Assembly: GCA_964360785.1 (NCBI GenBank)
Contig: CAYHXX010000001.1
Location: 138,549-202,548, forward strand
Reading direction: 5' to 3'
DNA from: an uncultured Gammaproteobacteria bacterium
GTDB lineage: Bacteria > Patescibacteriota > Microgenomatia > Woykebacterales > RBG-16-39-9b
DNA: 64,000 nt
Made by a program: the position numbers and the translations under genes
The notes under the pieces: model-generated
What the model was told of the DNA's origin: nothing
Database searches by the model: none
Seen by the model: the letters and a program-made list of their open reading frames with translations, nothing else
In this document: positions 1 through 54,739 of the stretch, piece after piece
How the letters are laid out: each line of letters starts with the position of its first letter
Position numbering within the stretch: the first letter of the stretch is position 1

Positions 1-470
1 GTTTCTCCAGAATGGTTTTCAAAACCCACCATTTTATCTTTCAAAAAATCAACTTCCATTACCAGGTTTCCCATCATGCGTGTGTTGCTCGCGCGGGTAG
101 CAATATCAAGTATTCCCAACCCCTCGGTCTCTTGGCCACTACTGTCGCGATAATAAAGCCCAAACAGTTGGTAGCCTCCACAAACACCCAGGAAAACCTT
201 ACTCTCTTGCGCCTCATTCTGAAGAAATTTCTTTTTCTCTTTTAGATCTTCACCAACAGTCGTTTGTGCAGTATCCTGGCCACCACCAAAAAAATAGAGG
301 TCAGTCCAATTTTCCTTAGGCTTATCCTTTAACCTAACCTCATCGATATTTACCTCAATGCCGCGCCACTCACAGCGTTTTTTGAGTGTAAGTATGTTAC
401 CCCGATCTCCATAGGTACTCATTTCTTTTGGATACAGCCACGTGATATTTAGATGCATTTTCTCGTTCAT
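1..470 (-). CDS. gatD: Lipid II isoglutaminyl synthase glutamine amidotransferase subunit GatD (CobQ-like GATase). The N-terminal 156 aa are present and the C-terminus is cut by the window start.
   Basis: Minus-strand translation from the ATG at 470 gives MNEKMHLNITWLYPKEMSTYGDRGNILTLK..., with a CobB/CobQ-like type-1 glutamine amidotransferase pattern. The gene sits immediately downstream of murT (stop at 473) in the usual murT-gatD arrangement. The plus-strand ORF 12..245 is its antisense. Confidence 0.6.
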   Translation of the reverse strand, partial: MNEKMHLNITWLYPKEMSTYGDRGNILTLKKRCEWRGIEVNIDEVRLKDKPKENWTDLYFFGGGQDTAQTTVGEDLKEKKKFLQNEAQESKVFLGVCGGYQLFGLYYRDSSGQETEGLGILDIATRASNTRMMGNLVMEVDFLKDKMVGFENHSGE

Positions 471-23815: not shown

Positions 23816-23901
23816 TGGTGCGGGCGGTGAGACTCGAACTCACAAGACCTTACGGCCAATGGATTTTAAGTCCATCGCGTATACCATTCCGCCACGCCCG
23901 C
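23816..23901 (-). tRNA. tRNA-Leu(TAA)
   Basis: GCGGGCGTGGCGGAATGGTATACGCGATGGACTTAAAATCCATTGGCCGTAAGGTCTTGTGAGTTCGAGTCTCACCGCCCGCACCA; long variable arm. Confidence 0.85.
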
Positions 23902-23973
23902 TAGGTGACTTGGAGATTATACAAAATGAAGGGGAATTCTGCTAGCCAGAAAGCTCACGACAATTGCAAAAGT

Positions 23974-24534
23974 TTAGTTTAAAAGCCTGCGGGAAAGACG
24001 ATAAAGAACCAATCCTACCAAAGCTAAACCAACGAAAACTAGGTTGTTTTCTGGTCCAGTACTTGGGAGGCTTGGGTTTGTGGTAGTAGTACCTTGGGTT
24101 GAACCGGATTCATCTCTAGCCTCTTGGGTCGTTGTGGTTTCATCTTTCTTCGGTGGGCTTCCAACTTTGATTTTTGTTTTTTGGGACTCATCTCCAGCGA
24201 GATAAAGTTCAGCTTCAGTATTTTCGGAAAGTGTGAGCTCTCTAGAAGAAGACTTCGCATCGACCTCAACAAGAGTAGTCTTGTCGCTTGATTTTTTGAT
24301 CGTTTGGTTTTTATCTGTATTGTTTTGAATTCGGAAAACTTCTTTATTATCGACACTATAGTTATTGAGGGCAAATTTGCCATCTTTATTGATTGTAACT
24401 ACTGCGACTGAGTTGTTTCCATTGGCAAGAAAACGGTAAATAAGAACACCAGCCCCAACAACCACAACCAAAAAGAGTAAGAGCCCAACAATTGAAATAG
24501 CGGTTTTTGCCATAGCGACAAGAATATAGCGCAA
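23974..24534 (-). CDS. LPXTG-anchored surface protein (sortase substrate)
   Basis: N-terminal signal/TM; C-terminal LPSTG, then a hydrophobic stretch and RRLLN tail. Confidence 0.6.
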   Translation of the reverse strand: MRYILVAMAKTAISIVGLLLFLVVVVGAGVLIYRFLANGNNSVAVVTINKDGKFALNNYSVDNKEVFRIQNNTDKNQTIKKSSDKTTLVEVDAKSSSRELTLSENTEAELYLAGDESQKTKIKVGSPPKKDETTTTQEARDESGSTQGTTTTNPSLPSTGPENNLVFVGLALVGLVLYRLSRRLLN

Positions 24535-24619
24535 CTTATAGTTGATTGCAAGTAGTTTATATTTTTGAGCTAGGTGGCTGTGAATCGTCCTACTATCAGA
24601 TACATTAACTTCACTCTTT

Positions 24620-24694
24620 TGGTCGGGGTGACAGGGCTTGAACCTGCGGCCTCACGCTCCCAAAGCGCGCGCTCTACCACTGAGCTACACCCCG
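24620..24694 (-). tRNA. tRNA-Pro(TGG)
   Basis: CGGGGTGTAGCTCAGTGGTAGAGCGCGCGCTTTGGGAGCGTGAGGCCGCAGGTTCAAGCCCTGTCACCCCGACCA. Confidence 0.8.
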
Positions 24695-24710
24695 AAGTTA
24701 AAGTCTTTAC

Positions 24711-24785
24711 TGGTGCCGGATCGCGGAATCGAACCACGCACGCCCTGCTCTTCAGGCAGGCGCTCTACCACTGAGCTAATCCGGC
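24711..24785 (-). tRNA. tRNA-Phe(GAA)
   Basis: GCCGGATTAGCTCAGTGGTAGAGCGCCTGCCTGAAGAGCAGGGCGTGCGTGGTTCGATTCCGCGATCCGGCACCA. Confidence 0.85.
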
Positions 24786-24839
24786 GGAATTAGTCAAAGA
24801 TGCTCTTGCAACTAGCCAATATTACTTGTTTAAGTTTCA

Positions 24840-24885
24840 TTGGTCAGTGGCAAGCTTTGCTTACGACTGAGCTAATCCGGCTTAA
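24840..24885 (-). pseudogene. Partial tRNA-Phe 5' fragment (pseudo-tRNA)
   Basis: ctgagctaatccggc is identical to 15 nt of the tRNA-Phe 5' end, followed by a non-tRNA sequence ending TGACCA. Confidence 0.55.
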
Positions 24886-24934
24886 ATTTACGTTTCGGAT
24901 TTTGATTTTAGCACAAGTAGGATTACAAGAGAAG

Positions 24935-25390
24935 TTAAACTGCAGTTTCAGTTTTTGTTGATCTATATTTTTTATCTAGAGCAAAACGCATTATAACCAT
25001 CGGAATACAAGATAATACGAAGACTCCCAAAAAAATTATTGCAGAAATACCTACTGTTTCTCCAACACCCACACTATCTGCGGCCCTATAAATCATTCTA
25101 CCAATAAGCCACACAATCAAAATAGAACTCCCACCCAAAACAGCCCCTACTTTAGACGTGGTCGGGTTGATAAGCGCCTCATTATTATTTTGGTAGTTCT
25201 CTTGTTTAAGTTTCTCTTCTGGGGTCTTTACCCTTGTAAACCCAAGAGTTTTCCACCTCCTAAAAGCTTGTTTGTATGTGTAGATAGTTAGCGAAATTGC
25301 TAAATAAATTGAGAATAAATAAATAATCGTAGGTTCAAATAAACCTAAAATTGTAAAGATTGTTGCACCCATCCAAAAAATATACCTCAT
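24935..25390 (-). CDS. Membrane protein, hypothetical
   Basis: 151 aa, four predicted TM helices. Confidence 0.35.
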   Translation of the reverse strand: MRYIFWMGATIFTILGLFEPTIIYLFSIYLAISLTIYTYKQAFRRWKTLGFTRVKTPEEKLKQENYQNNNEALINPTTSKVGAVLGGSSILIVWLIGRMIYRAADSVGVGETVGISAIIFLGVFVLSCIPMVIMRFALDKKYRSTKTETAV

Positions 25391-25464
25391 TTGGAAAGAG
25401 TAGCAAAAATTATGATAACTGGCAACAGTACATGGGGTGCTTGAGGGACAGAACCGTTTGCCTC

Positions 25465-25500
25465 GAAAAACGAACCCCTGACCTACTCAGTGTAGGAATG
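25465..25500 (-). pseudogene. Partial tRNA-Val fragment (T-arm to anticodon stem)
   Basis: cgaacccctgacctactcagtgtag against cgaacccctgacctactcggtgtaa in the intact gene (22 of 25 identical). Confidence 0.55.
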
Positions 25501-25522
25501 CTAAAGCATCCTGCGAAAATTC

Positions 25523-25599
25523 TGGTGGGCACCAAGGGACTCGAACCCCTGACCTACTCGGTGTAAACGAGTCGCTCTAACCAACTGAGCTAGGTGCCC
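25523..25599 (-). tRNA. tRNA-Val(TAC)
   Basis: GGGCACCTAGCTCAGTTGGTTAGAGCGACTCGTTTACACCGAGTAGGTCAGGGGTTCGAGTCCCTTGGTGCCCACCA. Confidence 0.85.
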
Positions 25600-25664
25600 A
25601 GAATTTTCTAAAACAAGACGCTCTACTTTTGTGCAAAGCACAAATGCATCATACTCCGACTGAA

Positions 25665-26069
25665 CTAAGAACCCAGAAAATATTTTTCTAAAGCTTTAAA
25701 GTACAAACCACCATCATCAAGTTTCTGATAATTTTCCTTATTTACCCATTCATAGTTTAAATGTTCATCGCTAATAGTAACTTCACCACCAGTAAATTCA
25801 CATTTGTATCCGACAAGGAAAATAGTTTTCCCTCCGTGCTTTCCACTAAGACAAACTCTGTGCCAGACAGCAAAAGGATCTCCAATTTTTATTTCCAGAC
25901 CTGTCTCTTCGTTTACTTCTCGTTTTAGACTTTCCTCAAAGTCCGTTTCACCTTCCTGAATTTTTCCGCCAGGAAAATCCAATCCATTATCAGCTTCCAT
26001 AACTAAGATCTTCCCATTATTGTTAATAAAAGCTTTTTGCCCAACATAAAAAAATTTGTCTTTAGCCAT
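25665..26069 (-). CDS. NUDIX hydrolase
   Basis: Nudix box GGKIQEGETDFEESLKREVNEETGL. The start was trimmed to MAKDKFF because the longer ORF runs into tRNA-Leu. Confidence 0.75.
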   Translation of the reverse strand: MAKDKFFYVGQKAFINNNGKILVMEADNGLDFPGGKIQEGETDFEESLKREVNEETGLEIKIGDPFAVWHRVCLSGKHGGKTIFLVGYKCEFTGGEVTISDEHLNYEWVNKENYQKLDDGGLYFKALEKYFLGS

Positions 26070-26075
26070 AATTTC

Positions 26076-26159
26076 TGGTGCGGATGAGAGGACTCGAACC
26101 TCCAACCCTTGCGGGACATGCACCTCAAGCATGCGCGTATACCATTCCGCCACATCCGC
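26076..26159 (-). tRNA. tRNA-Leu(GAG)
   Basis: GCGGATGTGGCGGAATGGTATACGCGCATGCTTGAGGTGCATGTCCCGCAAGGGTTGGAGGTTCGAGTCCTCTCATCCGCACCA. Confidence 0.8.
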
Positions 26160-26182
26160 AAAACCTCAGTATTCTAACATAT

Positions 26183-26269
26183 TGGTGCGGGCGAGAGGAG
26201 TCGAACCTCCACATCATTGCTGATACTGGAACCTGAATCCAGCGCGTCTACCATTCCGCCACGCCCGCA
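26183..26269 (-). tRNA. tRNA-Leu(CAG)
   Basis: GCGGGCGTGGCGGAATGGTAGACGCGCTGGATTCAGGTTCCAGTATCAGCAATGATGTGGAGGTTCGACTCCTCTCGCCCGCACCA. Confidence 0.8.
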
Positions 26270-37093: not shown

Positions 37094-37150
37094 TCGGTCC
37101 GCCAGCTGGCGGATTGAGTGCGGAGCACTTGCGTCCCTCCAGGCGCGCCA
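37094..37150 (+). repeat. Palindrome CCGCCAGCTGGCGG plus a partial 3' copy of tRNA-Arg (att-like scar)
   Basis: The sequence tcggtccgccagctggcggattgag is followed by gtccctccaggcgcgcca (against the tRNA 3' end atccctctgggcgcgcca, 14 of 16). Confidence 0.6.
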
Positions 37151-37155
37151 GTGTA

Positions 37156-37233
37156 TGGGGAAGTTAGCTCAGTTGGTAGAGCACTAGTTTGTGGAACTAG
37201 CTGTCACGGGTTCGAGTCCCGTACTTCCCCCCA
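37156..37233 (+). tRNA. tRNA-His(GTG) with encoded G-1
   Basis: G-GGGAAGTTAGCTCAGTTGGTAGAGCACTAGTTTGTGGAACTAGCTGTCACGGGTTCGAGTCCCGTACTTCCCC-CCA; the 8-bp acceptor stem is typical of tRNA-His. Confidence 0.85.
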
Positions 37234-41156: not shown

Positions 41157-41232
41157 GGGCCAGTAGCTCAATTGGCAGAGCAATTGCCTCTTAAGCAATC
41201 GGTTGAAGGTTCGAGTCCTTCCTGGCTCACCA
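41157..41232 (+). tRNA. tRNA-Lys(CTT)
   Basis: GGGCCAGTAGCTCAATTGGCAGAGCAATTGCCTCTTAAGCAATCGGTTGAAGGTTCGAGTCCTTCCTGGCTCACCA. Confidence 0.85.
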
Positions 41233-41307
41233 GATTTAAGTAAGTGGTTCAGGGTTCGCCCTTTTGCGAAGCGAAATGTGCGTTTTGTCCCAGGCCGCTC
41301 ACCATAT

Positions 41308-41383
41308 GCCCCAGTAGCTCAGTGGATAGAGCAGGACGGTTCTAACGTCAAGGTCGGGGGTTCGAATCCCTCCTGGGGTACCA
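41308..41383 (+). tRNA. tRNA-Arg(TCT)
   Basis: GCCCCAGTAGCTCAGTGGATAGAGCAGGACGGTTCTAACGTCAAGGTCGGGGGTTCGAATCCCTCCTGGGGTACCA. One G.A mismatch at the top of the anticodon stem. Confidence 0.75.
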
Positions 41384-45766: not shown

Positions 45767-47725
45767 CTAGTGGTTCGGATTTCGCCAACGGTAGAAATAG
45801 GGATACAAAAAGGAAACTGCTACCAAAAGTAAAACTACAAGCAATCCAATCTGTTGGGCTTCGAGGCTAAAGAAGGGCTTTACAAACAATTGTTTACTTT
45901 CTTTTAGCTTTATTTCTTTTTGTCCATCTTTCCCACTAAGATCAAAGATTAGTTTTGCCTGTTTGTTGTCAAGTAAAGAGTCGCTACGAACTCTTAAGTC
46001 AAAACTGCGTTTTTCAAATGGAAGTATGATACCTAGATCTTTCTCCTTCGGCTCGATAATCCCAAGAGTAGAGTTGTCAGAAGTTATTGCCAGTTTGGAA
46101 CTAAATACTGCCCGACCCGTCTGGTTTTCAATAGTTACCTTTCCCCTGGATGGGAATCCTGAAACAACTTTTTCTTTGTTGTAGATGATTTTTGGCTCAG
46201 CTGCAAATTTTACCTCCTCATTGCTAAACTCTACCTTTACATCATCAGTTTGGCTTGGAGAAGTTTTGTAAGCTCCGGCTGGAAGTGGCTCCTCACTAGA
46301 GACACCGTTGATAGCAAATACAAAGTGGTTTGTATCAAGCTTGGTAAAATAATCCAAACCACCAGTGGTCGATCCCCAAGTCGGATCAACCTGAATCCAG
46401 CGACCTTTTTCTTTATCATAGTATTCTGGCCAGGCGTGGAGTACGGTGGTGTCCACCAAACCTTCGATCTTAGTTGGTCTCAGGTTCGTATTGTCTGTGT
46501 AGGCAAATCCCACTACACCCCGAGCCGGAATACCCTTTGCCCGAGCCAGAGCGACAAAAAGGTCAGAGAAATCGGTACAAATTGATTTTTCTGGTTGATT
46601 AAAGGCATTCAAAGAGCCTCTTCTGCCTAGAGAATTGGACTGCAACCGCGAATAGTCGTATTTTAGTGTTGTCGTGACATAGTTATAGATTTCTTCTATA
46701 TTTTTAAGTTCTTTTGCTTTCTTTTGAATTTGTTGATTCTCAGAATCAATATATTTATCGCTTTTTACAAAAAGTTTGAGATCCGCTTCGGTCCAATTTT
46801 TTGGTTTCTGCACTGAGGTTTCTGAATCAAATATCTTGACCAAACCCTTGGCAATCACTTCGAGATTACTACCACCTTTGATACTGTATTCGGCAATATA
46901 GTTTCCAGACGGGTCGACAGACATAACAGTTGGCCTTGGATCCAAACTCTGGTAATAGAGTGCTTGATATTCAGTATCAGGCGGTAAGGTAATTTTTCCT
47001 TTTGCCGGGTAGACATTCTTATTTTTATAACGATATTTGAGTGTAAAACTAAAAAGCTGAAACTCTCCAAAATTAGCGTTTATCCCGCTAATCGAATTTT
47101 TTGTGAAAACATAATTTGTTGCTGCTAGAGTTTCGCTCGTCTGATCAGCAAGTGGGGACATCTTTCCAAGCGGACCAAAGCTCTTGGGGACAGATAAACT
47201 AAGTTTGTAGGAGGACAGGTTTTCATTGGTAACTATTTGCGGTACATTTATTTCCCACACCTTTCCTCTTTTGAGAGCCAGTGAATCAATCGTGTAATTT
47301 ATTTTGAAGTTTACTGATTTTCCCTGACCAACTATCTGCTGGTTGAGTTTGGCAATCAGTACCGTTGAACTTTCTTGAGCCTTTGTGGAAATACTGAGTG
47401 ACCCCAGCCCATCAGTTCCAGACACATCCGTTACTTTGTCTGAACCAGTTGTGATCGAATACTCTGAAGCGAAATAATCTTTAGTCAGATTTGTCAGGGT
47501 AATATTGTGAGCTACCCGCGCCTGACCGTTGTCACCAAAGGTAAAACTGATGTCATAGCCGGTGGAAAACTGTGCACTTGCCTCTACACTCTGCTTGGCA
47601 GGCAGAAAACCTAATAATAGCAAGAACAGTAGGATTGTTGAAAAAAGACGTTGAGTGAGATTTTTTATGGGCATGTGTATATAAGCGATTTTATCAATAA
47701 TCTTTCCCGGGCGCAATTTAGACAA
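45767..47725 (-). CDS. Large transglutaminase-like (Cys-His-Asp) domain protein with N- and C-terminal membrane anchors
   Basis: CTDFSDLFVALARAKGIPAR...LHAWPEYY...WIQVDPT forms a transglutaminase-core catalytic triad; C-terminal TM helix. Confidence 0.6.
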   Translation of the reverse strand: MSKLRPGKIIDKIAYIHMPIKNLTQRLFSTILLFLLLLGFLPAKQSVEASAQFSTGYDISFTFGDNGQARVAHNITLTNLTKDYFASEYSITTGSDKVTDVSGTDGLGSLSISTKAQESSTVLIAKLNQQIVGQGKSVNFKINYTIDSLALKRGKVWEINVPQIVTNENLSSYKLSLSVPKSFGPLGKMSPLADQTSETLAATNYVFTKNSISGINANFGEFQLFSFTLKYRYKNKNVYPAKGKITLPPDTEYQALYYQSLDPRPTVMSVDPSGNYIAEYSIKGGSNLEVIAKGLVKIFDSETSVQKPKNWTEADLKLFVKSDKYIDSENQQIQKKAKELKNIEEIYNYVTTTLKYDYSRLQSNSLGRRGSLNAFNQPEKSICTDFSDLFVALARAKGIPARGVVGFAYTDNTNLRPTKIEGLVDTTVLHAWPEYYDKEKGRWIQVDPTWGSTTGGLDYFTKLDTNHFVFAINGVSSEEPLPAGAYKTSPSQTDDVKVEFSNEEVKFAAEPKIIYNKEKVVSGFPSRGKVTIENQTGRAVFSSKLAITSDNSTLGIIEPKEKDLGIILPFEKRSFDLRVRSDSLLDNKQAKLIFDLSGKDGQKEIKLKESKQLFVKPFFSLEAQQIGLLVVLLLVAVSFLYPYFYRWRNPNH

Positions 47726-50615
47726 TTTGTACCACAGAGTGTTTGAGTAGATATTTACCCGTCGCGCTAGTCTTATCTTTAATAATTTCTTGAACTGTCC
47801 CCGCAGCTACAACCCGACCACCTTTCTCTCCACCTTCAGGCCCTAAATCAATTATATAGTCTGCAGTTTTGACAACATCGAGATTGTGCTCAATCACCAA
47901 AACAGTGTTTCCCATTTCGACGAGGCGATGAAGCACAGTCAAGAGATTCTCTATATCCGCAAAATGAAGTCCAGTCGTCGGCTCATCAAGAATATAAAAA
48001 GTCTTACCGCTGGACCTGCGCGAAAGCTCTGATGCGAGCTTTACTCTCTGCGCCTCTCCTCCTGAAAGGGTCGTTGCCGGTTGTCCCAAACGCATATACC
48101 CTAAACCAACCTCATTTAGAGTCCCAATCTTGGCTTTTATTGACGGGATCTTATCAAAAAATTCTGATGCTTCTTCGACTGTCAAATCCAAGATCTCAGA
48201 AATATTTTTACCTTTGAAAGTAATTTCCAGTGCCTCACGATTGTAACGCTTGCCCTGACAGGTCTCACAAGTGACGTATACATCAGGCAAAAACTGCATC
48301 TCAATTTTAATCAAACCATCACCCTGACAAGTTTCACAGCGTCCGCCTTTGACGTTAAAGGAAAACCTACCAGCAGAATAGCCTCTGGCCTTGGCATCGG
48401 GGGTGGAAGCAAAGATTTCTCTAATGTTGGTAAAGGCTCCAGTATAAGTAGCCGGATTACTACGCGGTGTTCGCCCAATTGGGGACTGATCAATATCAAT
48501 TACTTTATCAAGATTTTCTACACCTTCAATGCTGTCAAACTCGCCTGGTTTTACTTTTGTATGATAAATTCGTGCTGATAAAGCCTTCTGGAGAACGTCC
48601 TCAACCAAGGTCGATTTCCCACTACCCGAAACTCCAGTGACACAGACAAACTTACCCAAGGGAATCTCAACATCAATATTTTTTAGGTTATGTTCGCGTG
48701 CACCTTTGATAACTAATTTTTTTGTATTTTCAACTCGTTTAAATTTTCCTAGACCCGATCCTACCCGCTTCCTGTTAGAGAGGAAAGCACCGGTGATTGA
48801 GTCTTTGTTCTTTGCTACCTCTGTTGGAGTCCCTTCGGCAATGACTTCCCCTCCATGCTCGCCTGCTCCAGGCCCGATATCAACTAGGTAGTCAGCAGCA
48901 AACATTACTTCCTTATCATGCTCAACTACAATAACCGTATTTCCAAGATCCCTTAAGTCCAATAATGTCTTTATTAATTTATCGTTATCCTGAGGATGAA
49001 GACCAATTGTCGGTTCATCCAAAACATACAAAACCCCGGACAAGCCGGAACCAATCTGCGAAGCGAGTCGAATTCTCTGCGCTTCTCCCCCAGCTAAAGT
49101 AGCGGAACCGCGGTTGATAGTCAGGTAGCCCAACCCCACATCTAGCAAAAACTTCAACCGACTGTTTATTTCTTTAAGGACTTGCTTGGCAATTTGTGCT
49201 TCCTTTTCAGACAAAACCAGATTTGTAAACCAAGAACTGACTTCCTCGATTGAAAGATTGGAAACTTCGACTATTGATTTCTTCTGAATTGTTATAAAAA
49301 GCGCTTCCCGCTTTATTCTGGCTCCTTGGCAAGTGTCACAGGGTTCTTCGCGCATGTATTTTTCTATCTCTCTTTTTACCCACTCACTTTCAGTCTCCTT
49401 GTAACGGCGCATTAATTCTGGAATTAAACCTTCAAAAGCGGTTGCAAAAGTGATTGTTTTACCAAAACGGTTTCTGCCACTGACTTTAAAAGTCTCACTC
49501 TCACTACCTTCCAAAATGACATCAACAATTTCGGTGGGCAGTTCCTTTATCGGAGTCGAGAGTGAAAAATTAAGATGTTCTGAGAGTGCCTCAATTCTAC
49601 GAGTCGACCAAGTATCATGAGACATCATTCGGCTCCAAGGGTAGATCGCACCTTCACTAATCGAAAGGTTTTTGTTTGGAATCACCAAGTCTTTATCGAC
49701 TGTCAACCGAATTCCCAAACCGTCACAACTGTTGCAGGCTCCGTGTGGAGAGTTGAACGAAAAGGTCCTGGGCTCAATTTCAGGTAAAGATAAACCGTGT
49801 TCAGGACAAGCAAACTTTTCTGAGAAAAGCTTGTCGTCAACAGCATCCCCACCAAGTATTAACATACCTTCACCAAAACGAAGAGCAGTTTCCACGGTTT
49901 CTGTCAATCTTTGTTGGTCAACCTCACCCAACACTCTATCAATTACTGCCTCAATATCATGAATCTTGTAGCGATCAAGCGACGGTACTTCGTCTATTTC
50001 GTAAACCTTCCCATCGACTCTAGTTCTGACCAAACCTTGTTTCTTAAGCTCACGAAAAGTTTCTTCATAAGTACCTTTACGGCCTTTGACTATCGGCGCC
50101 AAAATGTAAAAAAGTTTTTTCTGACTGTCTGACCCCTGATTACTGTTTTCTGATATCTGTTTACTGATCTGATCAACTATTTCTTGTACAGTCTGAGCTT
50201 TGATTTCTTTACCATCAATAGGACAATGCGGAGTACCTACCCTTGCCCAAAGCAAGCGCATATAGTCATAAATTTCGGTAATCGTCCCAACAGTTGAACG
50301 GGGATTTTTGGAAACAGTTTTTTGATCGATTGAGATAGCCGGAGAAAGCCCTTCGATCTGATCAACATCCGGCTTTTCCATCAAACCAAGGAATTGCCGA
50401 GCATAAGCAGAGAGGGATTCAACGTAGCGTCTTTGTCCTTCGGCATAGATCGTGTCAAAAGCAAGGGAGCTTTTTCCGCTCCCGGAAATTCCAGTTATAA
50501 CAACGAGTGAGTTTTTGGGAAGCTCTAAATCAATATTTTTTAGGTTGTGCTCTCTAGCACCACGAATTGTGAGTTTATCGGCCTTCATCGTATCTTTCTT
50601 TGCTAAGGGCCACAA
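47718..50615 (-). CDS. uvrA: Excinuclease ABC subunit A
   Basis: Two ABC ATPase modules (GISGSGKSSL / GVSGSGKSTL), zinc fingers CxxC; 965 aa. Confidence 0.95.
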   Translation of the reverse strand: MWPLAKKDTMKADKLTIRGAREHNLKNIDLELPKNSLVVITGISGSGKSSLAFDTIYAEGQRRYVESLSAYARQFLGLMEKPDVDQIEGLSPAISIDQKTVSKNPRSTVGTITEIYDYMRLLWARVGTPHCPIDGKEIKAQTVQEIVDQISKQISENSNQGSDSQKKLFYILAPIVKGRKGTYEETFRELKKQGLVRTRVDGKVYEIDEVPSLDRYKIHDIEAVIDRVLGEVDQQRLTETVETALRFGEGMLILGGDAVDDKLFSEKFACPEHGLSLPEIEPRTFSFNSPHGACNSCDGLGIRLTVDKDLVIPNKNLSISEGAIYPWSRMMSHDTWSTRRIEALSEHLNFSLSTPIKELPTEIVDVILEGSESETFKVSGRNRFGKTITFATAFEGLIPELMRRYKETESEWVKREIEKYMREEPCDTCQGARIKREALFITIQKKSIVEVSNLSIEEVSSWFTNLVLSEKEAQIAKQVLKEINSRLKFLLDVGLGYLTINRGSATLAGGEAQRIRLASQIGSGLSGVLYVLDEPTIGLHPQDNDKLIKTLLDLRDLGNTVIVVEHDKEVMFAADYLVDIGPGAGEHGGEVIAEGTPTEVAKNKDSITGAFLSNRKRVGSGLGKFKRVENTKKLVIKGAREHNLKNIDVEIPLGKFVCVTGVSGSGKSTLVEDVLQKALSARIYHTKVKPGEFDSIEGVENLDKVIDIDQSPIGRTPRSNPATYTGAFTNIREIFASTPDAKARGYSAGRFSFNVKGGRCETCQGDGLIKIEMQFLPDVYVTCETCQGKRYNREALEITFKGKNISEILDLTVEEASEFFDKIPSIKAKIGTLNEVGLGYMRLGQPATTLSGGEAQRVKLASELSRRSSGKTFYILDEPTTGLHFADIENLLTVLHRLVEMGNTVLVIEHNLDVVKTADYIIDLGPEGGEKGGRVVAAGTVQEIIKDKTSATGKYLLKHSVVQIV

Positions 50616-50719
50616 AATTGCCGAACGATTCTATCAAGAAAGTAAATATTTTACAAGGGTACTGTCACTTAACCATTGACAAATATTGTTTTCTCAGGTA
50701 ATATAGCTTGCTTAGTTTG

Positions 50720-50970
50720 GTTACATGCGTGCTGGTGATCGGAGGCGGGGCCGGTTGCTGGGTAACACGTTGTAAACATCGGGGATGGCGGCTTGTCTAC
50801 CTCCCCTCGATGAATTTTCCGTCTCAGGTAAGGAAGGTGTCACTTGTTCCTCCTGAGATTTCACGTCTGCTGCACTGAACGTAACCGCCCCAAATGTACG
50901 TATCAGGCCAGCAGACACCCTCTCTCGTGTGCACCCGCGAGAGTTCTTTCTTTTTCTAAACAATTCCATA
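50720..50970. ncRNA. GC-rich (~55%) ORF-poor segment in the uvrA / small-ORF divergent intergenic region. Candidate structured RNA or leader; class undetermined.
   Basis: Strong local hairpins, for example TCTCAGG-TA-AGGAA-loop-TTCCT-CCTGAGA at 50822-50868 and GGGGATGG...CCTCCCC. The only ORF here (82 aa, minus strand) has a non-protein-like composition. Confidence 0.3.
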
Positions 50971-51004
50971 TTTGTTATAATTCCCTCGGTTAAGGAGGTG
51001 CCAA

Positions 51005-51247
51005 TTGGTTACCAGCACTTCTAGAAGTAAGCAAGAGATCAGGAATCTGCTAACAATCGCGAACTATCTTTCTGAAAACAGTCGAGTTCGAGGTCAAACC
51101 CGTGATCAGATAGCAATCGCTGACACTCTTAGATGGGTACTCGGGGAAGAAGATGTAGAGATTGCCGGATACTTCCGCGGAAATATCGCAGCTATATACG
51201 GGAACAAGATCGGAACCGAACTTATCCAGGAATGGGCAAATGATTAG
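51005..51247 (+). CDS. Hypothetical protein (80 aa, TTG start)
   Basis: SD AAGGAGGTG lies 4 nt upstream of TTG; no motif recognised. Confidence 0.4.
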   Translation: MVTSTSRSKQEIRNLLTIANYLSENSRVRGQTRDQIAIADTLRWVLGEEDVEIAGYFRGNIAAIYGNKIGTELIQEWAND

Positions 51248-51455
51248 ATTTGCAGTTTGGCTTGAATCGCTAGGAAATAAGCTCTATATCGGAGTGCTGA
51301 TATTCTTTGCAGCTTTTTGTTCCTTCTTCGGTTACCTCTTTGCTAGAGAGATACCAATCTGGAGAGCGGTTCTAGCCATGGCTCTGGGATACACAATTGT
51401 AATCCTCATATGTGTATATGCGATGGTGGTTACCTCAAGCAACAGGACGGCCTAA
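51240..51455 (+). CDS. Small two-TM membrane protein (71 aa)
   Basis: The ATG at 51240 overlaps the stop of the preceding ORF. Hydrophobic helices LYIGVLIFFAAFCSFFGYLF and AVLAMALGYTIVILICVYAMVV. Confidence 0.4.
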   Translation: MIRFAVWLESLGNKLYIGVLIFFAAFCSFFGYLFAREIPIWRAVLAMALGYTIVILICVYAMVVTSSNRTA

Positions 51456-53481: not shown

Positions 53482-53544
53482 CAAAATGGATTTTAACCTA
53501 AAAAGGAAATTAGAACTAGTAGAAAAGGTGACCGCAGACAACAG

Positions 53545-53990
53545 ATGTGGTGGAGATCAATCCCAACATCTACGTCTGCGGCCAAACAACAACGGTCGAG
53601 CTGCGTACTGTGTAAATAGCTAACACTTCGCGCTCAACACGGAGTTAAAAAGTTGGCAGGAGCCGGCTTGAACCAGAAAACCGGAAAGGAGGCGACGATA
53701 ACGATGGGGGCAAGCAGAACCCACCGTCTGGTTAAACTCCCACTGTATCTCGCAACAGTCTCTCCCGCCTACCTGCCTACACTGGGACTCTAGGGGAGCT
53801 ATGAGTGCCCAGATTCAGCCGTTAAACGCACCCAAGGAACGAACTGCCGTAGCTTATGTTCCCCAGGATCGCACAACCGATCGAAACGTTCCAGGCGTAA
53901 TTTCGGTCAAGTCGTGGCCGCACTAAATATCGCCAAGAGGCGTGATCTCTCATTTTTATTCTCAGATCTTAGCACAGAATCCAACCTTTA
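53545..53990. ncRNA. ORF-free GC-richer (~50%) ~450-bp segment between uvrB and lexA. Candidate ncRNA or regulatory region; class undetermined.
   Basis: No ORF of 60 aa or more in any frame, in DNA where stop codons should be rare; several GC-rich inverted repeats. Contains GAAACGTTC (53883-53891). Confidence 0.3.
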
Positions 53991-54118
53991 GCAAAAAATG
54001 GCAGCTTAACTTGATCTAGTTAACAAGTAAAAAGGAGTGTTTTGTCCCAGTTGACACACAACCGAAAAAGTCGCGATAATTAGACCATAAATTACCCAAA
54101 CTTACCTTAGGAGGACTT

Positions 54119-54739
54119 ATGCCACCAGTTGTTTATAGACGCCAACGCGATTTACTAGAATTTATTTCCCAATTCATGCAAAAAAGGGGCTACGCACCAA
54201 CACTTGCTGAGATCTGCGACGGTTTGGGATTGCGCTCCCCTGCTACTGTCCATGAACATATCCAGAATCTGATCGAAAAAGGTTTACTCAAAAAAACCGA
54301 AGGGGCCCGCCGTGGTCTGGAAGTGGTAGATCAAAAGGTTATGGGCTGGCTACCAAATGGAGTTGAACTTCCACTCATGGGCAATATTGCCGCTGGACAA
54401 CCAATTGAGGCAATTACCGATCCCTCTGCAACTATTACAGTTCCGGCTGACATGGTCGGAACCAAACGTACCTATGTGCTCCAAGTAAAGGGCGACTCAA
54501 TGATTGAAGCCGCAATTCTTGACGGAGATTATGTTTTGATAGAGCAGTCCGAAACTGCTGAGAATGGCCAAATTGTGGTGGCAGTCTTAAACGGTAACTT
54601 CGCCACACTGAAACGCTATTACAAGGAGTTTGACCATGTCCGACTGGAGCCAGCAAACTCAACGATGAACCCAATCATTGTCCGCGGTGATATCCAGATA
54701 CAGGGAAAAGTAACGGGAGTGATTCGCAAGTTCCACTAA
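54119..54739 (+). CDS. lexA: LexA repressor
   Basis: N-terminal wHTH; AAGQP cleavage site; catalytic Ser GDSM and Lys LKRY of the S24 peptidase. Confidence 0.9.
   Translation: MPPVVYRRQRDLLEFISQFMQKRGYAPTLAEICDGLGLRSPATVHEHIQNLIEKGLLKKTEGARRGLEVVDQKVMGWLPNGVELPLMGNIAAGQPIEAITDPSATITVPADMVGTKRTYVLQVKGDSMIEAAILDGDYVLIEQSETAENGQIVVAVLNGNFATLKRYYKEFDHVRLEPANSTMNPIIVRGDIQIQGKVTGVIRKFH

Follow-up and report, generated by a model that had tools for sequence, protein, structure and literature searches.

A lineage-restricted family of predicted structured RNAs in the uvrA-uvrB spacer of Woykebacteria-related genomes

The stretch of DNA analysed here (the window, 64,000 nucleotides (nt) long; all coordinates are window positions) carries a GC-rich segment between uvrA and a small plus-strand gene encoding 80 amino acids (aa), which a preliminary description had proposed to be a candidate non-coding RNA (ncRNA) or a riboswitch-like leader. 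We find that this segment very probably contains an independent structured ncRNA gene, hereafter RNA-B, predicted to be transcribed from the plus strand, with homologues at the same site in related genomes. The genes and open reading frames (ORFs) around it are given below.

Beyond uvrA, on the other side from the GC-rich segment, minus strand: transglutaminase-like gene
47718-50615, minus strand: uvrA
50616-51004: the segment in question, from uvrA to the 80-aa gene
51005-51247, plus strand: 80-aa ORF, with an AAGGAGG Shine-Dalgarno (SD) sequence at 50993-50999 and a TTG start at 51005
Ending at 51455, plus strand: 72-aa ORF, a predicted two-helix membrane protein, overlapping the 80-aa ORF
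51469-53481/53541, minus strand: uvrB
Between uvrB and lexA: spacer of 0.6 kb
Starting at 54119, plus strand: lexA

The SD-equipped small gene on the plus strand and the divergent uvrA on the minus strand flank the segment as had been claimed. The nearest named UvrB proteins come from Candidatus Woykebacteria, Roizmanbacteria or the 'Patescibacteria group', and all six copies from Hainich H52 groundwater (0.1-um-filtered assemblies) are identical to the window region; we accordingly assign the window to a Microgenomates-group bacterium of the candidate phyla radiation (CPR). Across the predicted transcript body (50712-50945) the GC content reaches 54.7%, compared to a window mean of 41.7% and to 32.3% and 33.9% in the flanks on either side (50616-50711 and 50946-51004, respectively). 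The earlier observation that the segment is GC-rich relative to its surroundings is therefore borne out, although the figure of ~55% attached to positions 50720-50970 is slightly high; the GC content of this interval is 52.6%, and only 3.6% of 251-nt windows are equally GC-rich.

The transcription signals and the parts of RNA-B, together with the other features that overlap or adjoin it, are as follows.

50628-50656, minus strand: predicted divergent promoter of uvrA (TTGTAA, 17-nt spacer, TAGAAT, with TG)
50676-50704, plus strand: predicted sigma-70-type promoter of RNA-B (-35 TTGACA at 50676-50681, 17-nt spacer, -10 TAATAT at 50699-50704)
50711-50955, plus strand: RNA-B, predicted primary transcript of ~240 nt, with ends placed from the promoter and the terminator
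50720-50725 with 50771-50777, plus strand: P1, in which GGUUAC(A) pairs with (U)GUAA(A)C, with one bulged A; it encloses P2
50727-50742 with 50751-50770, plus strand: P2, an extended imperfect hairpin inside P1, interrupted by an internal loop, GUAA, at 50762-50765
50743-50750, plus strand: L2, the 8-nt apical loop of P2, AGGCGGGG, invariant in seven of seven sequences
50778-50784 with 50803-50811, plus strand: P3 hairpin, AUC-GGGG with CCCC-UC-GAU, with a variable apical part (50785-50802) that carries a CUUG(U) loop
50821-50837 with 50845-50859, plus strand: P4 hairpin, 14 base pairs (bp), imperfect, with GGUGU at 50836-50840 in the apical loop
50865-50916, plus strand: P5, a 17-bp hairpin in a variable region, conserved neither in sequence nor in length among homologues
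50922-50957, plus strand: predicted intrinsic terminator, stem CUCUCGUG/CGCGAGAG (50922-50929 with 50936-50943), loop UGCACC, U-tract UUCUUUCUUUUUCU
50721-50969, minus strand: 82-aa ORF antisense over RNA-B, entered in ENA and NCBI as a protein
50973-51007, plus strand: signals of the 80-aa gene, outside RNA-B, namely an extended -10 (TGTTATAAT, 50973-50981), the SD sequence AAGGAGG and the TTG start

Consensus scanning of the region yielded a promoter and terminator pair for an RNA on the plus strand only, with a predicted transcription start near 50711 and a GC-rich terminator stem of 8 bp. The -35 element of the RNA-B promoter lies ~20 bp from that of the uvrA promoter, so that the two are placed back-to-back. 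Because an extended -10 (TGTTATAAT) and an SD sequence follow the terminator, the 80-aa gene does not need the RNA-B promoter. We thus regard RNA-B as a stand-alone RNA gene, with a predicted promoter and terminator of its own, that is divergent from uvrA.

The search for homologues started from the only relative of the 80-aa protein (53% identity), which led to locus L087, and was then extended to ten loci whose UvrB shares 71-85% identity with that of the window. L087 has the order uvrA, spacer, 80-aa gene, 72-aa gene and uvrB seen in the window; its copy of RNA-B is ~85% identical in the 5' half and diverged in the 3' half, with the terminator conserved. The 80-aa and 72-aa ORFs, the latter with two predicted hydrophobic helices, belong to no Pfam family, are confined to the window lineage and L087, and sit where relatives carry other elements (RNA-C or RNA-D, see below). 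The ten UvrB-relative loci share a conserved lexA/uvrB/spacer/uvrA arrangement without the small ORFs, and five of them (L089, L090, L092, L093 and L112) have an RNA-B homologue in the spacer, in the same orientation. This brings the homologues to six, all at the syntenic uvrA-uvrB spacer and all in related CPR genomes (Microgenomates, near Woykebacteria); the UvrB proteins of these relatives are 76-89% identical to that of the window. Their RNA-B ranges in length from ~216 nt (L092) to 556 nt (L093). The 556-nt variant (L093:6082-6637, minus strand) has ~300 nt of extra structured sequence between P3 and P4 and keeps P1, P2, the AGGCGGGG loop, a fully compensated P3, a GGUGC loop and the terminator loop with GCACC; upstream of this variant there is another GC-rich element.

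The signals for transcription recur in these genomes as well. L087 has an identical TTGACA-17-TAATAT promoter and an equivalent terminator, and comparable -35/-10 pairs were recognised by eye upstream of the homologues in L090, L089, L092 and L112. The uvrA promoter block is kept in L087-L092, and a TATAAT stands at the matching place before the 80-aa gene of L087.

Outside this set of loci no further member was found. A second covariance model, built on six sequences, detected the L112 homologue, which was absent from its training set, at the syntenic site with E = 7e-4. Covariance model searches gave no second copy in the 64-kb window and none in 80 uvrA loci of other phyla. When the UvrA N-terminus was compared with genome contigs, the best among the matches listed were 54-63% identical and came from many phyla, none of them with RNA-B. 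Scanning 241 million metagenome records with the strict DNA pattern GGTTRC..AGGCGGGGS..GTRRACATC did not add a member either: all 16 matches, about the number expected by chance, fall in GC-rich coding sequence and are rejected by the covariance model, while a looser pattern run against viral contigs gave chance matches only. The RNA-B family therefore looks rare.

The predicted fold is favoured on the strand that carries the promoter. The plus strand is more stable than its shuffled versions (z = -2.56, with none of 200 shuffles as stable), while the minus strand is not (z = -1.09, 28 of 200 as stable). Among the homologues, one position of P1 is occupied by AU, GU or CG, and 14 of the 18 pairs of P2 have changed on both sides (manual alignment). 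In P3, the GGGG/CCCC pairing becomes UAGAGCG/CGCUCUA in L093 and is extended by UG/CA in L089 and L092; a single-stranded, U-rich linker, AUUUUCC, follows this hairpin. The P4 stem differs in sequence in each genome, while its apical loop reads GGUGY in all homologues. An imperfect helix had been reported in this part of the segment at 50822-50868; the 14-bp hairpin is real, but its arms extend over 50821-50837 and 50845-50859. Finally, GCACC (50931-50935 in the window) is found in the terminator loop of all seven sequences, including L112, whose terminator stem differs in sequence.

We quantified these changes on alignments in which the helices are in register. MAFFT alignments misaligned the AGGCGGGG loop and were replaced by hand-made structural alignments (with N padding) and by a covariance-model alignment, taken from a first model that was built on the three closest sequences and recovered L092, L089 and L093. 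Both kinds of alignment were adjusted to the structure, manually or through the model, which inflates the percentages paired given below. In the hand-made alignment of the 5' domain (seven sequences), 95.8% of the cells are paired and 20 of 33 pairs changed on both sides; none of 500 shuffles was as good, and partners slid out of register were 33-51% paired. The covariance-model alignment (six sequences) gave similar values, with 94.8% of the cells paired, 17 of 29 pairs changed on both sides, no shuffle out of 500 as good and slid partners at 37-53%. For the 3' module, again aligned by hand over seven sequences, the corresponding values are 97.0%, 12 of 19, 0 of 500 and 34-56%; here the inner stem of P4 covaries at five of five pairs and the terminator stem has changed on both sides at six of its eight. 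RNAalifold, to which no structure was supplied, predicts P1, P2 and P3 from the covariance-model alignment. Covariation, whose absence had been named in advance as a refutation, is thus present, with compensatory changes in P1-P4 and in the terminator that go beyond the shuffled and slid controls. The conserved and covarying P1, P2, P3 and P4, together with the terminator hairpin, argue that RNA-B is a structured RNA, and the retention of the promoter, the terminator and three loop motifs while the helices compensate points to purifying selection on RNA structure.

Two of the three loop motifs are complementary to each other. When the seven RNAs are folded singly and without constraints, each has GGUGY in an apical loop and GCACC in the loop of its terminator, and the two can pair over 5 bp (G-C, G-C, U-A, G-C and Y-G). 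Four of the seven RNAs could add a sixth pair, each time a different Watson-Crick pair (AU, CG, GC or UA). The two loops probably form a kissing contact. The third motif, the AGGCGGGG loop at L2, is the sole exact copy of this sequence within the window, and no partner for it within RNA-B is consistent across the homologues.

Several points weigh against the proposal that RNA-B is an RNA gene whose conserved loops have the roles suggested below. The comparison comprises only seven distinct sequences from one clade, in alignments fitted to the structure as stated above, and the ends of the transcript are those given by consensus scans only. The five core pairs between the GGUGY and GCACC loops are invariant, and so contribute conservation and not covariation, while pairing at the sixth position in four of seven RNAs is near chance expectation. 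No exact complement of AGGCGGGG occurs elsewhere in the 64-kb window, and no consistent target for it stands above background in the 5' regions of uvrA, uvrB and lexA of six genomes. Last, of 12 related loci whose uvrB-uvrA spacer was read, five do not have RNA-B there: in L094 and L113 the spacer measures just 75-86 nt, and L088, L091 and L095 have other GC-rich sequence in its place. RNA-B is therefore dispensable or relocated in these five loci.

The preliminary description had checked the segment by eye for common RNA families and found that none fits, in which it was right. At gathering score, the 4227 covariance models of Rfam 15 recognise in the whole window only 14 transfer RNAs (tRNAs); their genes lie at 8695-41380, in the first 41 kb, with tight clusters at 23819-26268, 36168-37230 and 41157-41380. 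At E <= 10, the interval 50500-51150 gives two chance-level matches only, to a fragment of a human long non-coding RNA and to Ysr202 (9.4 bits, for a threshold of 315 bits), and the homologous loci L087-L091 give no Rfam match either. The missing Rfam hit had also been put forward as a refutation; we read it as the mark of an undescribed family. The further refutation named, a degraded pseudogene, does not apply to the segment.

A highly diverged housekeeping RNA (6S RNA, signal recognition particle (SRP) RNA, RNase P or transfer-messenger RNA (tmRNA)) could in principle have escaped these models. CPR genomes are divergent, and recognising 6S RNA from its sequence is especially difficult; in the 64-kb window, the stretch that was scanned, Rfam detects nothing but tRNAs, and CAGGU..GGAAGG in the window copy is a faint echo of SRP helix 8. 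We nevertheless consider a housekeeping RNA quite unlikely. No match to the 4227 models appears even at E <= 10 in a search space of 651 nt, nor in the homologues. The fold is a row of hairpins and not a 6S-type rod with a central bubble, and our reading of the sequence gave no tRNA-like end, no CR-I/CR-V motifs of RNase P and no GNRA-capped helix 8. The RNA is not of constant length (~216 to 556 nt), and close relatives lack it at the syntenic site. As for the resemblance to SRP domain IV that had been suggested, it does not hold up: CAGGU..GGAAGG occurs only in the window copy, in the stem and loop of P4, and the homologues, whose P4 stems differ completely, keep GGUGY only.

The second alternative takes RNA-B as a cis-regulatory 5' leader (a riboswitch, an attenuator or a T-box-like element) that would control the 80-aa and 72-aa genes through termination at 50922-50943. 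The layout of the window invites it, since GC-rich structure, a terminator and, 50 nt further on, an SD-equipped gene follow one another on one strand, in an order that is also kept in L087. The other genomes speak against it. The 80-aa gene lies downstream of RNA-B in two genomes, another RNA in two and the convergent end of uvrB in three; in L089, L090, L092, L093 and L112 the RNA thus precedes a promoter-bearing RNA or the end of uvrB and no gene. As the downstream element differs between genomes, RNA-B is not expected to be a cis-regulatory leader. In both genomes that have the 80-aa gene, moreover, this gene has its own -10 between terminator and SD sequence (TGTTATAAT in the window, TATAAT in L087). 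No antiterminator was seen, and nothing upstream is complementary to the 5' arm of the terminator, CUCUCGUG; the conserved complement pairs with the terminator loop, which would leave the stem intact. Nor does any riboswitch or T-box model match at E <= 10. A leader is thus very unlikely. Of the two possibilities offered by the preliminary description, the ncRNA stands, with a predicted promoter and terminator, six homologues, covariation and no conserved ORF, whereas the riboswitch-like leader is contradicted by the RNA's own terminator, the 80-aa gene's own -10 and the lack of a small gene after the RNA in five of seven genomes.

Non-functional GC-rich DNA, be it a decaying foreign fragment, a pseudogene or the remnant of a mobile element in a permissive spacer, would fit the look of insertion and deletion turnover at this site, where the spacers flanking uvrB hold differing, unrelated GC-rich inserts across relatives, or none. 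It would also fit a rare family for which the strict-pattern scan gave chance matches only. On the other hand, the promoter, the terminator and three loop motifs are kept, the helices change in a compensatory manner, and the 5' half of the RNA (~85%) is more conserved than the neighbouring 80-aa protein (53%). The segment has no similarity to protein families, and neither repeats nor a transposase are found nearby. We hold this explanation to be highly improbable.

That the segment is a protein-coding gene, through the 82-aa minus-strand ORF or a 56-aa plus-strand ORF, is barely credible: gene callers annotate the former in ENA and NCBI, and both the window and L087 keep the plus-strand frame through TRCKHRG open over 58 aa, but in the remaining homologues the plus frame is open for 8-37 aa and the minus frame for 11-64 aa, the substitutions are paired and compensatory across helix arms and not codon-periodic, and neither ORF has an SD sequence, the start of the plus-strand ORF lying upstream of the predicted transcription start. 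The 82-aa ORF had been described as the only one of the segment; it exists and is the longest, but the plus strand also has ORFs of 56 and 49 aa. A six-frame comparison of the seven homologues leaves no frame open in all of them: that of the 82-aa ORF extends over just 11-83 aa, that of the 56-aa ORF over 8-58 aa. Since the 82-aa ORF runs antisense to RNA-B, its product forms a singleton cluster in the protein collection (with no Pfam match) and its frame is not conserved, we judge it to be spurious, a probable artefact of gene calling.

The uvrA-uvrB spacer of the relatives also holds other Rfam-negative, GC-rich elements that bear a promoter and a terminator, which we call RNA-A, RNA-C and RNA-D; BLAST and covariance models gave no homology of these to the window or to RNA-B. 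RNA-A (~250 nt; L087 ~215-470, plus strand, and the spacers L090:8032-8670 and L091:2666-3008, on the minus strand of those loci) is absent from the window and sits between the uvrA promoter and RNA-B or, in L091, alone. It has its own -10 (TATACT in L087, TATAAT in L090 and L091), conserved blocks GGUCUG..GACCCGCAAC..ACCUGCCC and a terminator stem nearly identical to that of RNA-B (CUCUCGUG..CACGAGAG). RNA-C is found in the spacers L088:8026-8490, L089:8014-9131 and L092:6026-6689 (minus strand), and also forms the 3' tail of the L112 RNA. It carries a hairpin with AGGCAGGG, one base off the invariant loop of RNA-B, followed by degenerate short repeats (GCAUCU, GCGUCU or UUCCG) and by a terminator with the loop ..GCACCCC.. 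or a close variant. RNA-D is in the L089 spacer. An AGGCRGGG hairpin of either type occurs in eight of ten non-minimal spacers. The 388-nt GC-rich spacer of a Woykebacteria metagenome-assembled genome (L095:6026-6413, GCA_040876345.1) is unrelated to RNA-A, RNA-B, RNA-C and RNA-D, lacks AGGCRGGG and may be yet another element at this site.

On the other side of uvrB, the uvrB-lexA spacer of the window contains a second GC-rich (50-62%) non-coding block of ~400 nt (53530-53940), whose minus strand includes GUAGGCAGGUAGGCGGGAG. Both of its strands fold better than shuffles (z ~ -2.6), with no Rfam match at E <= 10 and no terminator in the scan; the block may represent either a further RNA gene or an extended leader of uvrB. 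GC-rich inserts of comparable size occupy this position in relatives but show no BLAST similarity, and only the 110 nt beside lexA are conserved. Where a relative has a minimal spacer on one side of uvrB, the spacer on the opposite side is minimal as well. It is conceivable, though improbable, that RNA-A to RNA-D and the 53530-53940 block form a set of DNA-damage-linked RNAs, co-regulated with the SOS and excision-repair genes, whose shared G-rich (AGGCRGGG) and GCACC loops would act on a common partner; they would then be more than unrelated small RNAs gathered in a permissive spacer.

Strong conservation marks the promoter blocks of uvrA and lexA (50616-50660 and 54007-54118 in the window, and L087-L113). 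The former consists of TTGTAA-17-TAGAAT followed by CGTTCGGCAA, and the latter of TTGACA .. CCGAAAAA .. GATAAT .. ACCATAAATTACCCAAA. The motif CCGAA(A/C), common to both, might belong to the operator that LexA recognises in this clade. A LexA operator common to the lexA, uvrA and RNA-B promoters was considered and set aside: the blocks are conserved, but no convincing shared palindrome could be defined in them, and none is present at the RNA-B promoter.

Altogether, RNA-B very probably is a previously undescribed, lineage-restricted structured RNA family of a familiar kind. With regard to mechanism, we propose that it would work as a trans-acting regulatory RNA or as the RNA of a ribonucleoprotein (RNP), and not as a cis leader. 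The kissing of GGUGY and GCACC (5-6 bp) would lock the 3' module into a compact fold, and the G-rich P2 loop, AGGCGGGG, would be the surface that recognises a partner in trans; since it has no consistent partner inside RNA-B, this loop is proposed to face outward. The partner could be a protein, in an RNP or with RNA-B as a sequestering RNA, or a C-rich RNA target resembling CCCCGCCU. We slightly favour a protein, because the multi-helix core is kept while a 300-nt insertion is tolerated, and because neither the window nor, in six genomes, the 5' regions of uvrA, uvrB and lexA gave a complementary site. Action in trans through presentation of the loop is for us a tentative proposal, nearly as easily believed as doubted; the overall picture of an independent ncRNA gene with such a mechanism we find somewhat favoured.

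Given its position by the uvrA promoter in a repair cluster, co-regulation of RNA-B with the damage response is an attractive idea, and its place in the lexA-uvrB-uvrA-uvrC neighbourhood suggests, but does not demonstrate, a link to the DNA-damage response. CPR/Patescibacteria have tiny genomes with very few described ncRNAs beyond the universal ones, and RNA-B, with its 216-556 nt and three invariant loops, may offer a new way into the study of how RNAs regulate genes in this uncultivated radiation. The finding also sets right the public records, in which the spurious 82-aa ORF figures as a 'hypothetical protein'. Lineage-restricted small RNA (sRNA) families turn up routinely, so that we see RNA-B as a solid finding of moderate interest.

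Compared with known systems, RNA-B is set apart from tmRNA and RNase P, for which no Rfam match was obtained, by its short length (~240 nt) and by an end formed by a terminator hairpin instead of CCA. It recalls SRP RNA (RF00169 / RF01854) through the CAGGU..GGAAGG of the window copy, reminiscent of helix 8; unlike in SRP RNA, however, the GGAA is not closed by a pair, no GNRA-capped helix is present, the motif is absent from P4 of the homologues, and neither RF00169 nor RF01854 matches at E <= 10. With 6S RNA (RF00013) it shares a size near that of the smaller members, a stand-alone gene and the difficulty of being found by sequence. In contrast to 6S RNA, it is a series of hairpins with a nested P1/P2 and not a rod of closing stem, central bubble and terminal stem, it has no match to the model, and its length and presence vary among close relatives.

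Trans-acting base-pairing sRNAs of the seed type have a conserved apical loop and an intrinsic terminator; RsaE/RoxS, with C-rich loops, are an example. RNA-B is like them in its predicted stand-alone promoter and Rho-independent terminator, its conserved short loop, its variable stems and its U-rich linker. Unlike them, it has a G-rich loop for which no target site was found, and with ~240 nt (up to 556) and five covarying helices it is larger and more elaborate.

In the literature searched, neither ncRNAs of Microgenomates or Woykebacteria nor RNAs encoded in uvrA-uvrB spacers are described. The closest parallel is with the orphan structured ncRNAs that comparative genomics has brought to light, for example the raiA motif RNA (Weinberg et al. 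2017, PMC5737381), in a study that makes no mention of uvr, lexA or CPR lineages. RNA-B differs from these in having no Rfam 15 match and an architecture of its own, with a AGGCGGGG-capped P2 within P1 and the GGUGY and GCACC loops. It resembles them in being a GC-rich, multi-helix, covarying RNA, predicted to be an independent transcript in an AT-richer spacer, and its narrow phylogenetic range is typical of the rarer orphan ncRNA classes.

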